From the NCBI RefSeq assembly GCF_048403405.1, contig NZ_CP183129.1: a stretch of DNA of 64,000 nt; one strand, 5' to 3'. Source of the stretch: Escherichia coli (lineage in GTDB: Bacteria > Pseudomonadota > Gammaproteobacteria > Enterobacterales > Enterobacteriaceae). The notes under the pieces are model-generated. The model was not told the origin of the DNA, did no database searches, and saw nothing but the letters and a program-made list of their open reading frames with translations. The position numbers and the translations under genes are program-made. How positions within the stretch are numbered: the stretch's first letter is position 1; each line of letters begins with the position of its first letter. Positions 35,988 through 41,670 of this stretch are shown piece by piece.

Positions 35988-38900
35988 TTACGCCTTCTCA
36001 ATGTTGACTAAGAACGCTTTATATTCCGGCGTTTGCGAGTTTGCATCACCGACATTCGGCGTCAGAGTGTTAGCGATATAACCTTTACGCGCGACACCCT
36101 CAAAGCCCCAGTGGATTGGAATACCCACCGTTTCAACCTGCTGACCGTTTACATTCAGCGGCTTCAGACGGCGCGTTACCACAGCCACCGCGCGGATAAA
36201 GCCACGCTTGCTGGATACGGTGACACGGTCGCCATTGGCGATGCCTTTCGCCGCCGCCAGCGTTTCGCTGATTTCCACAAACTGTTCCGGCTGAGCAATG
36301 GCGTTGAGCAATGCATGCTTAGTCCAGGTGTGGAAGTGCTCGGTCAGACGATAGGTCGTACCCACATACGGGAACTGCTCTTTTTTACCCATCCGCAGCG
36401 CGTCTTGTTCATACAGACGAACGACCGGGTTAGACACCACGTTCGGATGCAGCGGGTTAGTGCCCAGCGGCGTTTCAATTGGCTCGTAGTGTTCCGGGAA
36501 CGGACCTTCCGCCATTTTGTTGATGGCAAACAGGCGTCCCATCCCTTCCGGCTGCATGATAAACGGTCCGGTTAGTGTACCTGGCGCGGCATTGCCGAAG
36601 TCCGGAATATCGTTACCCGTCCACTTGCTGCCGTTCCACTGGATCAGCATCCGTTTCGGATCCCACGGTTTACCGTTGATATCCGCCGAAGCACGGTTGT
36701 AGAGTACGCGACGGTTGAGCGGCCACGCCCAGGCCCATCCCAGCGTATTCCCCAGACCGGACGGGTCGGAGTTATCGCGGTTAGCCATCTGGTTGCCCTG
36801 CTCTGTCCAGCTACCGGTGTAGATCCAGCAAGAAGATGCGGTTGTACCGTCATCACGCAGATGCGCAAAGCTACTCAGCAACTGACCTTTCTTCGCAATC
36901 AGCACGCCATTGGCATCATAGAGATCTTCCAGCGCGTAGCCGTTGTTCTCTTTAGCTACTTCGTCAGATTGCGGTTCGTGCGGCTGCTTGTAGTTCCAGC
37001 TCATCTTCATCAGCGGTTCTACGCCTTTACCACCTTCGGCCTGGTACAGCTCGCGCAGATGATGGTAGATACCCGCCAGAATTTCGCCGTCGTTACGCGC
37101 TTCGCCCGGCGCGTCCTGACCTTTCCAGTGCCACTGCAACCAGCGACCGGAGTTAGCAATAGAACCATCTTCCTCAGCAAAGCAGGTCGAAGGCAGACGG
37201 AATACTTCAGTCTGAATAGACGCAGGATCGACATCGTTCGACTCGCCGTGGTTCTGCCAGAAGGTAGAAGTTTCAGTCACCAGCGGATCGATAACCACCA
37301 TATACTTCAGCTTGCTCAGGCAGCTTACCACTTTGTTTTTGTCCGGGAAGGACGCAACCGGGTTAAAGCCCTGGCAGAAATAACCGGTGACTTTGCCTTC
37401 ATCCATCATGTTGAAATACTTGATGACGTCGTAGGTCTGGTCCCACTTGGGCAGCCAGTCGTAGCCCCAGTTGTTCTCTTTCTGCGCAGCATCGCCGTAG
37501 AAAGATTTCATCAGGCTAACGAAGAACTTCGGATAGTTGCTCCAGTAGTTCACCTGATCAGCCAGCGTCGCTTTCGGCGTGTTCGCTTCCAGATACGACT
37601 GCAAATCAACCTGTTTTTCTGACGGCAGCGTCAGATAACCCGGCAGGCTGGTAGAGAGCAGGCCTAAGTCGGTCAGCCCCTGAATGTTGGAGTGACCACG
37701 CAATGCGTTCACGCCGCCACCGGCCATACCCATGTTACCGAGCAGTAACTGGATCATCGCCATAGTACGGATGTTCTGCGCACCCACGGTGTGCTGCGTC
37801 CAGCCCAGCGCGTAAAGGAAGGTGGTTGTGCGATCCGGTGCGCTGGTGGAGGCCAGCACTTCACACACTTTCAGGAAGTCGGCTTTTGGCGTACCACAGA
37901 TGTTTTCTACTACGTCCGGCGTGTAGCGGGAAACGTGCTCTTTCAGCAAGTTCCACACACAGCGCGGATGAGTCAGTGTTTCATCGCGTTTCGCATAGCC
38001 GTTTTCATCGAACTGATAGTTCCAGGACGATTTATCGTATTGACGTTTTTCAGCGTCGTAGCCGCTGAACAGACCGTCTTCGAAAGCAAAATCATCACGC
38101 ACCAGCAGACTGGCGTTGGTGTAATGCTTAACGTATTCGGCGTTGATTTTGTTGTTTTCGATCAGGTAGCGCAAAACGCCAGACAGGAACGTAATGTCCG
38201 TACCGGAACGAATAGGTGCGTAAATATCCGCTACAGAAGCGGTACGCGTAAAACGGGGATCGACAACGATCAAGGTTGCATCGTTGTTGTTTTTCGCTTC
38301 CATCGCCCAGCGGAAACCGACGGGATGCGCTTCAGCAGCGTTACCGCCCATCACCATTACGACGTTAGCGTTTTTGATATCCACCCAGTGGTTGGTCATC
38401 GCACCGCGACCAAATGTTGGAGCAAGACTTGCTACCGTTGGTCCGTGTCAGACGCGCGCCTGGTTGTCTACCGCCAGCATCCCGAGGGAGCGGGCAAATT
38501 TCTGGGTCAGCATCCCGGTTTCGTTGCTGGCACCGGAGGCACACAGCATACCGGTAGAAAGCCAACGGTTTACCGTTACGCCCTGCTCGTTCTTTTCAAT
38601 AAAGTTAGCGTCACGGTCAGCTTTCATCAGCTTCGCAATACGGGAGAATGCTTCATCCCAGCTAATGCGCTGCCATTTGTCAGAACCTGGCGCACGATAT
38701 TCCGGGTAGCGCAGACGGTTTTCGCTGTTGACGTAATCCAGCAAACCGGCCCCTTTCGGGCACAGCGCACCACGGCTTACCGGATGATCCGGGTCACCTT
38801 CAATGTGATAAATCGCTTCTCTGGCGTTTTTCGCGCCATCACCCAGGCTATACATCAATAGCCCGCAACCTACGGAACAGTATGTGCAGGTGTTACGGAT

Positions 38901-39035
38901 CTCTTTAGCGCGTAATAATTTGTAGTTTCGCGCCTGAGCCAGTGCTTGCTTTGGGGCAAAGCCCAATGCCGCTACTGTTGTTCCAGCCATACCGCCCGCG
39001 CAGATTTTAAAAAATTGTCTGCGACTGACGTCCAT
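35988..39035 (-). CDS. fdnG: Formate dehydrogenase-N alpha subunit, selenoprotein; in-frame TGA (Sec) at 38448..38450
   Basis: Twin-arginine signal (MDVSRRQFFKICAGG) in the 195-aa upstream ORF; TGA followed in the same frame by the 803-aa ORF; combined 1015 aa matches FdnG. Confidence 0.9.
38400..38447 (-). promoter_or_regulatory. Presumed SECIS region immediately 3' of the fdnG UGA codon
   Basis: Position only, based on the bacterial SECIS rule; structure not verified. Confidence 0.45.
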
Positions 39036-39099
39036 TGCTTTCCTCTTTTTTCAGGGGTATTACTGCGCGAGGAAACTAACAGTAAAATTCTGAATCTTT

Positions 39100-39113
39100 T
39101 TGCGCGAAATCAA
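39100..39113. promoter_or_regulatory. FNR-like site (TTGCG-CGAA-ATCAA) in the fdnG/yddG divergent promoter region
   Basis: Partial match to TTGAT-N4-ATCAA about 65 bp upstream of the fdnG start. Confidence 0.35.
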
Positions 39114-39266
39114 AAAGAACACGTGTTTGCCACAAAATAATCCGCCTGCGCAAATTGACCTACCTCAATAGCGGTAGAAAAACGCACCACTGCCTGACAG
39201 GCCAGTTAAAAAAATGCTATAAAATTCAGCTTAATTTTTAACGGCAAGAGAGACAAAACAGCGAGC

Positions 39267-40148
39267 ATGACACGACAAAAAGCAACGCTCATAGGGCTAA
39301 TAGCGATCGTCCTGTGGAGCACGATGGTAGGATTGATTCGCGGTGTCAGTGAGGGGCTCGGCCCGGTCGGCGGTGCAGCTGCTATCTATTCATTAAGCGG
39401 GCTGCTGTTAATCTTCACGGTTGGATTTCCGCGTATTCGGCAGATCCCGAAAGGCTATTTACTCGCCGGGTGTCTGTTATTCGTCAGCTATGAAATCTGT
39501 CTGGCGCTTTCCTTAGGATATGCGGCGACCCGTCATCAGGCGATTGAAGTGGGTATGGTGAACTATCTGTGGCCCAGCCTGACAATTCTCTTTGCCATTC
39601 TGTTTAATGGTCAGAAAACCAACTGGCTGATTGTACCAGGATTATTATTAGCCCTGGTTGGCGTCTGCTGGGTGTTAGGTGGTGACAATGGATTACATTA
39701 TGATGAAATCATCAATAATATCACCACCAGCCCATTGAGTTATTTCCTGGCGTTTATTGGTGCGTTTATCTGGGCAGCCTACTGCACAGTAACGAATAAA
39801 TACGCACGCGGATTTAACGGAATTACCGTTTTTGTCCTGCTAACGGGAGCAAGTCTGTGGGTTTACTATTTTCTCACGCCACAACCAGAAATGGTATTTA
39901 GCACGCCAGTCATGATTAAACTCATCTCTGCGGCATTTACCTTAGGATTTGCTTATGCTGCATGGAACGTCGGTATATTACATGGCAACGTCACCATTAT
40001 GGCGGTAGGTTCGTATTTTACGCCCGTCCTTTCCTCAGCGCTTGCAGCCGTGCTGCTCAGCGCCCCGCTGTCGTTCTCGTTCTGGCAAGGCGCGCTAATG
40101 GTCTGCGGCGGTTCCCTGCTCTGCTGGCTGGCGACACGTCGTGGCTAA
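39267..40148 (+). CDS. yddG: Aromatic amino acid exporter YddG (DMT superfamily)
   Basis: 293-aa polytopic membrane protein. Confidence 0.9.
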   Translation: MTRQKATLIGLIAIVLWSTMVGLIRGVSEGLGPVGGAAAIYSLSGLLLIFTVGFPRIRQIPKGYLLAGCLLFVSYEICLALSLGYAATRHQAIEVGMVNYLWPSLTILFAILFNGQKTNWLIVPGLLLALVGVCWVLGGDNGLHYDEIINNITTSPLSYFLAFIGAFIWAAYCTVTNKYARGFNGITVFVLLTGASLWVYYFLTPQPEMVFSTPVMIKLISAAFTLGFAYAAWNVGILHGNVTIMAVGSYFTPVLSSALAAVLLSAPLSFSFWQGALMVCGGSLLCWLATRRG

Positions 40149-40406
40149 AATAATTGTCGGGTCTACGGCCCGGCAGTTAATCAGATAAATTCCGACAATA
40201 TAAAAAAATAAATTTCAAATACCAGTAGTTCACCTTATATTTCATTTCGACTTCGATCACATATCGATAAATAATATTATTTCATCTATTTTTCTCATTG
40301 TTTTTAATCACCATTCTATTTTAAAAACAGTATGTCATTTATAAATGACGCCGTTTAAAATTCGTTTAGAAAATACGTTTAACGATAATTAAAAGGATTC
40401 TGTTAA

Positions 40407-41507
40407 ATGAAATTAAAAATAGTTGCGGTGGTTGTAACTGGTTTGTTAGCTGCGAACGTAGCACACGCTGCCGAAGTCTATAACAAGGATGGTAATAAAC
40501 TCGACCTTTATGGCAAGGTTACCGCTCTACGTTATTTTACTGATGATAAGCGTGACGATGGTGATAAAACTTATGCCCGTCTCGGCTTTAAAGGAGAAAC
40601 GCAAATCAATGATCAAATGATTGGTTTTGGTCACTGGGAATATGATTTTAAAGGCTATAACGATGAAGCCAACGGCTCGCGCGGTAACAAGACCCGTCTG
40701 GCCTATGCAGGTTTAAAAATTAGTGAATTTGGCTCTCTGGACTATGGTCGTAACTACGGTGTCGGCTATGACATTGGTTCATGGACCGATATGTTGCCAG
40801 AATTTGGTGGCGATACCTGGAGTCAGAAAGATGTCTTCATGACATACCGTACTACCGGTGTGGCAACCTATCGCAACTACGATTTCTTCGGCTTAATTGA
40901 AGGTCTGAACTTTGCCGCGCAATATCAAGGCAAAAATGAACGCACTGACAATGGCCATCTTTATGGTGCTGACTACACGCGTGCCAATGGTGACGGTTTC
41001 GGTATCTCCTCAACTTATGTTTATGATGGCTTTGGTATCGGTGCGGTGTATACCAAATCCGATCGGACAAATGCGCAGGAAAGAGCCGCTGCTAATCCTC
41101 TCAATGCCTCCGGTAAGAATGCAGAACTGTGGGCTACAGGTATAAAATATGATGCCAACAACATCTACTTTGCAGCTAATTACGCTGAAACATTAAACAT
41201 GACCACCTATGGCGATGGTTATATCTCTAACAAAGCACAAAGTTTTGAAGTAGTGGCACAATATCAATTCGACTTCGGCTTGCGCCCATCACTCGCTTAC
41301 CTGAAATCGAAAGGCAGAGATCTGGGCCGCTACGGCGACCAGGACATGATTGAGTATATCGACGTTGGTGCGACGTATTTCTTCAACAAAAATATGTCGA
41401 CCTATGTTGATTATAAAATCAACCTGATTGATGAAAGCGACTTTACCCGTGCCGTAGATATTCGCACCGATAACATCGTCGCAACGGGCATTACCTATCA
41501 GTTCTAA
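40407..41507 (+). CDS. yddL: OmpC/OmpF-family general porin, apparently intact (K-12 yddL position)
   Basis: 366 aa; signal peptide (…[23 protein letters not shown]); C-terminal …TGITYQF. Confidence 0.8.
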
Positions 41508-41518
41508 CATCCTCTCCT

Positions 41519-41547
41519 GACCAGCCCTTCTCTGGGCTGGTTTTTGA
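41519..41547 (+). terminator. Rho-independent terminator after the porin gene (ccagccc/gggctgg plus ttttt)
   Basis: Read directly. Confidence 0.7.
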
Positions 41548-41670
41548 TTTAAGTGCTGCTGTATGACTCCTTAAGTAAAAATGAGCAATTTTTGATATTT
41601 CTGGTCACTCACCTCAATTAATATTCTTCCATACCCTCCGGGGACATCTTACTATAATATTTATTGATGT

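Follow-up and report, generated by a model that had tools for sequence, protein, structure and literature searches.

The most abundant porin of Salmonella Typhimurium is reported to be OmpD (PMC4215857), whose gene, STM1572, lies 3' of yddG and 5' of narU/narZ. In enterohaemorrhagic Escherichia coli (EHEC) EDL933, yddG and narU flank O-island 62 (OI-62), which consists of z2239-z2242 (Okeke et al. 2011, PMC3079680), and the same island has been described in O157/O55:H7, in group D of the E. coli reference (ECOR) collection (042, UMN026, IAI39 and SMS-3-5) and in Shigella sonnei (PMC3079680). Okeke et al. (2011) also noted a resemblance between yddL of E. coli K-12 and the 5' end of z2239 (PMC3079680), and a 2023 survey lists YddL as an uncharacterised β-barrel protein of 96 amino acids (aa) with a possible link to osmotic stress (PMC9976479). 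No literature linking yddL or z2239 to OmpD was found in the searchable papers. We analysed a stretch of 64,000 nucleotides (nt) of E. coli DNA (contig NZ_CP183129.1 of assembly GCF_048403405.1; hereafter the window), in which a porin gene is located on the plus strand at 40407..41507, between yddG and two leucine-rich repeat (LRR) genes that precede narU. It is likely, in our judgement, that this gene is a chromosomal, vertically inherited orthologue of ompD that is ancestral in the yddG-narU interval, is under selection and is probably expressed at a low level, and that yddL is its deletion remnant. The locus and the protein family were already known and the porin is annotated in thousands of genomes; the work described here refines that knowledge and adds orthology with OmpD, a composite origin for OI-62, exact junctions for the deletions, counts of three locus states and the finding of strong purifying selection set against weak codon bias. 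None of these findings is a new kind of biology.

The porin gene runs from ATG to TAA and encodes 366 aa. The first-pass annotation of the window had described an intact porin of this length with a signal peptide and a C-terminal Phe, and this was confirmed at 40407..41507 by Pfam, by comparison with solved structures and by alignment. Residues 27-366 matched the whole of the PF00267 Porin_1 profile (positions 1-337 of 337) with an E value of 2.2e-134 and a score of 448.6 bits (cut-off 23.7), and the solved structures of OmpK36, OmpC, OmpF and PhoE were matched at E values spanning 1e-127 to 1e-100, with OmpK36/OmpC at ~1e-127. The signal peptide (codons 1-21; 40407-40469, plus strand) was called by alignment to known cleavage sites and not by a dedicated predictor; the N-terminus aligned with the signal-peptidase sites of OmpC and OmpF, with A21/A22 invariant, which leaves a mature porin of 345 aa. 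The protein ends in ITYQF, with the terminal Phe of the β-signal. Alignment with K-12 OmpF, OmpC and PhoE showed that the constriction residues K16, R42, R82, R132, D113 and E117 (OmpF numbering) and the PEFGGD motif of loop 3 are all kept. An AlphaFold2 model built from an alignment of 32 sequences gave a predicted local distance difference test (pLDDT) score of 69.6 and a predicted template modelling (pTM) score of 0.73, and it superimposed on OmpC/OmpK36 with template modelling scores of 0.80-0.82, normalised to the target, as expected for a predicted 16-stranded β-barrel. Loop 3 was poorly modelled, which makes the model unusable for analysis of loop 3 or of pore size. Strains 746 and MS 69-1 encode the identical protein (WP_000768393.1, 100% identity), the exact sequence was found on at least 1000 contigs, and every full-length allele examined has the 366-aa frame.

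We compared the genomic context of the porin with that of related porins. In Salmonella (OmpD, P0034) and in Citrobacter koseri, the order is fdnI-fdnH-fdnG on the minus strand, followed by yddG and the porin gene on the plus strand and, further on, by narU and narZ; the window has the same frame, and Escherichia albertii has the order yddG-porin-narU. The window yddG (39267..40148, plus strand), which encodes an aromatic amino acid/drug-metabolite exporter, matched the NCBIfam model NF008676 (YddG) with an E value of 1e-141. Its position to the left of ompD-type porins is conserved in Salmonella, Citrobacter and E. albertii. A study of Enterobacter hormaechei places yddG on the left in Enterobacter too and describes a single 2.4-kb deletion that disrupts both yddG and ompD (PMC11874173). 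Upstream of the start codon, ~230 bp of the window align with the region upstream of ompD in Salmonella and C. koseri.

In a simple neighbour-joining tree, built without bootstrap, the porin fell within the OmpD/NmpC/Lc clade at 71-78% identity, with the OmpD, NmpC/Lc and Citrobacter subclades mutually unresolved, and K-12 OmpC, OmpF, PhoE and OmpN, taken from strain RP437, showed 59-62% identity. Salmonella OmpD is 72-74% identical to the window porin and has the same pore residues and loop 3 motif, and the C. koseri porin, at 78% identity, is the closest relative outside Escherichia. The window porin also carries the OmpD-clade signatures K80 and GDTW.Q.DVFMT.RTTGV. Among the comparisons named in the first-pass annotation, which were yddL, OmpN, OmpD and NmpC, yddL proved to be a 5' stump, and the porin grouped with OmpD/NmpC and outside OmpN. 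NmpC (of DLP12) and Lc (of phage PA-2) are members of the same general-porin clade with 66-71% identity, and an E. coli porin of 360 aa from the NmpC/Lc part of the tree (P0063) is prophage-borne, lying in a lambdoid late region between Q and the holin gene; the window porin, in contrast, has yddG on one side and the LRR genes/narU on the other, and no phage genes are close to it. A relative in Escherichia fergusonii is found at yet another locus (L011/L012, 4369-7113), where a drpB-like gene and a trkH-family gene flank two adjacent porin genes encoding 351 and 370 aa; the 370-aa protein is 68% identical to the window porin. Position, clade and upstream homology thus all agree with the OmpD group, and by these three lines the porin is an orthologue of Salmonella OmpD and not of OmpC, OmpN or the prophage-borne NmpC.

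RefSeq names the protein 'porin OmpC', which would make it a paralogue of OmpC, and the label ompC was assigned by the Prokaryotic Genome Annotation Pipeline (PGAP); the match to NCBIfam NF007841 scored 495 bits, just over the 484-bit cut-off. OmpC, OmpF, PhoE and OmpN of E. coli agree with the window porin in family (Porin_1), fold and architecture of the constriction, but they are encoded at other loci, the true ompC being located between apbE and rcsD. Identity to K-12 OmpC is 62%, and the porin branches with OmpD/NmpC, outside OmpC/OmpN, and carries the two OmpD-clade signatures. Orthology with OmpC is refuted by the locus, the 62% identity and the separate clade, the label reflecting a broad subfamily model, and we give practically no credence to an origin of the gene as an OmpC paralogue. 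The description 'OmpC-family' in the first-pass annotation is broadly true, and 'OmpD orthologue' is the more exact term.

A second alternative follows the 2011 description of OI-62, in which the porin would be part of a recently acquired island and would have arrived together with the LRR genes. The gene set between yddG and narU in the window is that of OI-62: over 5.2 kb the region shares 95.7% identity with O157 genomes, with porin, LRR and espR1 annotations, and the porin is the same gene at the same locus as Z2239 of O157:H7, with 97.9% nt identity and 3 aa differences. The islet is absent from K-12, CFT073 and sequence type 131 (ST131), its GC content has been reported as 33-36% (PMC3079680), and the region upstream of the porin has 27% GC, all of which would fit recent acquisition. 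However, the porin itself has 44% GC versus 34% for the LRR block, it occupies the same yddG-adjacent slot in Salmonella, C. koseri and E. albertii, and its upstream region is homologous to that of ompD. Moreover, the LRR genes are missing in E. albertii, which has the porin, and E. albertii and E. coli show matching similarity in the porin (82% at the nt level) and in the flanking yddG (83%). Homology between E. coli and E. albertii breaks off precisely at the stop codon of the porin and is regained near 44365-44380, and homology with C. koseri returns at approximately the same right-hand point. The first-pass annotation had joined the porin and the LRR genes in one islet, which the GC difference and the E. 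albertii arrangement contradict. For the porin, the recent-island reading is largely refuted, and we consider it very improbable. The simplest history appears to be that the porin is ancestral to Escherichia, that the LRR block (~41508-44379) is a later, E. coli-specific insertion at the place where Salmonella and Citrobacter have GFA-smvA-smvR, and that the porin has been lost at least three times independently. The E. albertii genome CP034213.1 (L010, 6137-8014) has an orthologue with ~91% aa identity that is interrupted by IS1 near codon 84; it also has a second IS1 fragment between the porin and narU, and an Rhs/VgrG cluster after narU instead of narZ.

To the remaining alternative, that the porin is a decaying, silent and functionally irrelevant relic in E. 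coli, selection and codon usage are relevant. The window and O157 alleles differ by 20 synonymous and 3 nonsynonymous substitutions, with a ratio of nonsynonymous to synonymous rates (dN/dS) of 0.04 (binomial P=1e-10 against neutrality), and four aa polymorphisms were found among three porin alleles, all of them in the predicted external loops L1, L2, L4 and L7. Because dN/dS is 0.04 and the exact protein is present on so many contigs, selection maintains the porin, and these values indicate strong purifying selection where it is present. Codon usage was assessed by the NAC fraction, which is the C-ending share of Asn, Tyr, Asp, Phe and His codons, and by the share of CTG among Leu codons. The window porin had values of 0.40 (NAC) and 0.32 (CTG/Leu) and its E. 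albertii orthologue 0.35 and 0.32, whereas Salmonella ompD, which has the codon usage of a highly expressed gene, had 0.71 and 0.84. The C. koseri orthologue had 0.76 and 0.83, and the K-12 genes had 0.86 and 0.89 (ompC), 0.69 and 0.78 (ompF), 0.35 and 0.61 (phoE) and 0.45 and 0.63 (ompN). The high-expression codon usage that served as a proxy for a major porin is therefore lacking in the E. coli gene, and since E. albertii shows the same weak bias, the relaxation of codon usage predates the split of E. coli and E. albertii. This low-expression codon usage suggests that the E. coli porin is most likely a minor or conditionally expressed porin beside OmpC and OmpF and not a major one as in Salmonella. 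The low polymorphism of the loops and the weak codon bias also argue against a heavily exposed major surface protein. The name 'OmpD' appears in E. coli papers (a genome-wide association study of avian pathogenic E. coli, a pangenome of recurrent urinary tract infection, proteomics of Crohn's-disease isolates and a study of olaquindox in ATCC25922), where it is an automatic name that would fit NmpC/Lc equally well, and these reports were not counted as evidence of expression.

A further difference from Salmonella lies in the pairing site of the small RNA MicC, which was located in K-12 by Rfam. MicC is reported to target Salmonella ompD at a 12-bp site in codons 23-26 that is complementary to the 5' end of MicC. 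At this site (40473-40484 in the window), GAGGUAUAUAAC of Salmonella and C. koseri is replaced by GAAGUCUAUAAC in E. coli, and the two substitutions are disruptive: the predicted MicC duplex has -15.5 kcal/mol in Salmonella, -15.4 kcal/mol in C. koseri and -6.6 kcal/mol in E. coli. The MicC site that is intact in Salmonella ompD is thus broken in the E. coli porin. This degradation and the weak codon bias would be expected of a relic, as would three independent events of inactivation or loss, namely the deletion of the K-12 type, that of the CFT073/ST131 type and the IS1 insertion in E. albertii. On the other hand, divergent E. coli alleles show a low dN/dS, all pore-lining residues are preserved, as is the C-terminal signal, all full-length alleles examined encode 366 aa, and a candidate promoter, a Shine-Dalgarno sequence and a terminator are all present. 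We regard the relic reading as unlikely and favour a selected, probably low-expressed OmpD orthologue. Several points weigh against this preferred reading. Synonymous sites are saturated in the comparisons with Salmonella and Citrobacter, which leaves synteny and flanking similarity, and not a molecular clock, as the basis for vertical descent. Codon bias is an indirect proxy of expression, and no expression, proteomic or channel data for the porin were found in the literature, including under the locus tags Z2239 and ECs2076. The confidence of the structural model is moderate, with loop 3 poorly modelled, and intact reading frames among the ~1100 full-length matches described below were not counted one by one. 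Finally, the repeated independent losses could mean that the porin is dispensable or costly.

To determine how the locus varies, the porin gene was searched by megablast against 5426 complete E. coli genomes, and a 5.2-kb yddG-narU query was searched separately. The porin gene was matched in 4267 of the 5426 genomes, 1111 of them with at least 80% coverage, and the rest matched only bases 1-278/284. Three states of the locus were found, in agreement with the variation between strains that had been proposed. The full state, with the porin and both LRR genes, was present in ~1008-1111 genomes, including O157:H7 and MS 69-1, the latter being 100% identical to the window. The K-12 type, with the yddL stump and a hybrid LRR gene, was found in ~3150 genomes, including K-12, O104:H4 and O111:H2. 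Clean absence was estimated at ~1150 genomes, a figure derived from the genomes without a porin match, which were not individually classified; it is exemplified by CFT073 and by ST131, which was assigned to this state by the same 20% coverage pattern as CFT073. In the CFT073 type, the segment corresponding to 40226..44379 of the window is missing, a loss of 4.15 kb that takes away both LRR genes, the porin and most of the sequence upstream of it and leaves yddG and narU 272 bp apart.

The K-12 locus has the remnant that the first-pass annotation had named. The K-12 copy, yddL (b1472), a 96-aa 'putative porin' pseudogene between yddG and narU, is truncated rather than intact and identical: its first 278-284 bases and its upstream region are 99% identical to the window, and codons 94-366 are gone. 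K-12 strain RP437 has only bases 1-284 of the gene, for which the RefSeq entry reads 'yddL, porin, incomplete, missing C-terminus'; yddG flanks them on one side and, on the other, an LRR pseudogene that precedes narU. Comparison of K-12-type genomes with the window identified two deletions. The first corresponds to 40685..42231 (1547 bp), is joined at a CGG microhomology and removes porin codons 94-366 together with the 5' part of LRR gene 1. Its product is the 96-aa YddL reading frame, in which 93 porin residues, comprising the signal peptide and approximately four strands, are followed by KNL and a stop codon. The second corresponds to 42549..43200 (652 bp) and fuses LRR gene 1 to LRR gene 2 in frame; its join, at ATTGA(A/T)TTATC, is 11 nt of near-identical sequence with which an LRR unit begins. 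The resulting hybrid is the frameshifted yddK/yddJ in K-12 (L001, 6270-6601) and an intact 443-aa reading frame in O104:H4. Okeke et al. (2011) described the K-12 locus as 'disrupted by insertion of yddK' (PMC3079680); on present evidence, yddK/yddJ is instead a chimera produced by two deletions and not an inserted gene.

The intergenic region between yddG and the porin gene (40149..40406, plus strand), which contains the ~230 bp of ompD-like upstream sequence, is AT-rich. A consensus scan identified a candidate sigma-70 promoter, ATGTCA-18-TAAAAT, at 40332-40361 (plus strand), whose function is predicted only; in this AT-rich region, promoter-like sites were only ~2x as frequent as in shuffled sequence. 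The TTGACA of Salmonella and C. koseri corresponds to TTTATA at the aligned E. coli position, and this element was not used, as a convincing -10 partner was found in neither species. The conserved upstream block contains a weak TCACA site for the cAMP receptor protein (CRP), of which the half-site alone was seen. Dependence on cAMP-CRP, anaerobic induction and a role in methyl viologen efflux together with YddG would be expected of a member of the OmpD group. A Shine-Dalgarno sequence, AAGGA, is located at 40393-40397 (plus strand), 9 nt 5' of the ATG. On the 3' side of the stop codon, a hairpin resembling an intrinsic terminator, with 9 pairs (6 of them G-C) and a T-run, lies at 41519..41552 (plus strand); its sequence is E. 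coli-specific and is not common to E. albertii. This hairpin suggests that the porin is transcribed alone, apart from the LRR genes. A permissive Rfam scan found no known RNA elements in 38500-45000. In a TraDIS (transposon-directed insertion-site sequencing) study, K-12 yddL is among the genes with an unexpectedly low frequency of Tn5 insertion, beside many AT-rich prophage genes (PMC5821084). The low insertion frequency and the 27% GC upstream of the porin would be compatible with a nucleoid protein, for example H-NS, occluding the region, a point that PMC5821084 does not discuss.

We also examined the two LRR genes on the right of the porin. LRR gene 1 (41671..42936, plus strand) is a member of the low-GC insertion with an open frame of 421 aa and is of the type known as EspR2, as z2240/z2241 in O157 and as orf1600 in enteroaggregative E. 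coli (EAEC) 042 (PMC3079680; PMC5931665). It is open in the window as in EAEC 042, whereas the O157 copy is frameshifted and split (z2240/z2241, EspR2'), the locus tag ECs2074 denoting the EspR2' fragment. In MS 69-1, which is 100% identical to the window over 39700-44900, RefSeq gives only a 288-nt 'hypothetical protein, incomplete' in LRR gene 1 (corresponding to 42268-42555), which seems to be a gap in the annotation and not a true pseudogene. LRR gene 2 (42998..44251, plus strand), encoding 417 aa from its ATG, is an orthologue of EspR1, which is Z2242/ECs2073 of OI-62 (PMC4060028; PMC5931665), and the O157 orthologue is named 'T3SS effector LRR protein EspR1' in RefSeq. Both LRR proteins gave hits to SlrP and SspH2, two type III effectors, in the LRR regions of these, and the two genes are assigned to the EspR1/EspR2 family of type III effectors. 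They had been proposed to be surface-associated, which was not borne out: proteins of the EspR1/EspR2 type are listed as type III secretion (T3S) effectors in O157, and inspection by eye, with no predictor run, revealed no hydrophobic, signal-peptide-like N-terminal stretch in either protein. Relative to O157:H7, the window has 3 differing residues out of 366 in the porin and 44 out of 417 in the EspR1 orthologue, the latter being only 89% identical to the O157 protein. The LRR genes evolve at a much higher rate than the porin, whether because selection on them is relaxed or diversifying or because of recombination. On the other side of yddG, fdnG (35988-39035, minus strand) appeared as two reading frames of 195 aa and 803 aa split by an in-frame TGA. 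This TGA is the expected selenocysteine codon of formate dehydrogenase-N and not a disruption, and RefSeq annotates a single product of 1015 aa in matching genomes.

From its sequence features, the porin would be expected to act as a general diffusion channel. The precursor would be exported by the Sec pathway and cleaved after AHA, and the β-barrel assembly machinery (BAM) would insert the protein through its C-terminal Phe signal. The porin would then form a trimer of 16-stranded barrels, in which loop 3 (PEFGGD, D113, E117) narrows the pore, facing K16/R42/R82/R132, and small hydrophilic solutes, probably including β-lactams, would diffuse through it passively. The gene was lost from K-12 and most other E. 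coli genomes through the 1547-bp microhomology deletion that leaves yddL, from CFT073/ST131 through the 4.15-kb deletion and from one E. albertii strain through the IS1 insertion. A role as phage receptor or alternative porin, which the first-pass annotation had raised, is plausible.

These results modify the published view that OI-62 was acquired as a whole, since the island appears to be a composite of an ancestral porin and a later LRR insertion. They also suggest that the RefSeq name 'porin OmpC' is misleading for the window porin and that yddL is simply the stump of an OmpD orthologue. The porin repertoire sets the antibiotic permeability of the outer membrane, and porins serve as phage receptors and antigens; OmpD is reportedly a protective antigen in non-typhoidal Salmonella. 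In Enterobacter hormaechei, joint loss of OmpD and OmpC trades virulence for carbapenem resistance (PMC11874173). Permeability models based on K-12 are without this porin, yet ~20% of complete E. coli genomes have it intact and under purifying selection. Carriage of the porin is therefore relevant to how resistance through ompC/ompF loss, or phage host range, is read in carrier lineages. We raise as a tentative idea, with a small chance of being correct, that carrier lineages may have a silent or conditionally induced fourth general porin that works together with YddG, and that its induction or loss could alter the entry of β-lactams and carbapenems, toxic-compound efflux or targeting by phages and antibodies. 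If this is true, such effects would be invisible to K-12-based models.

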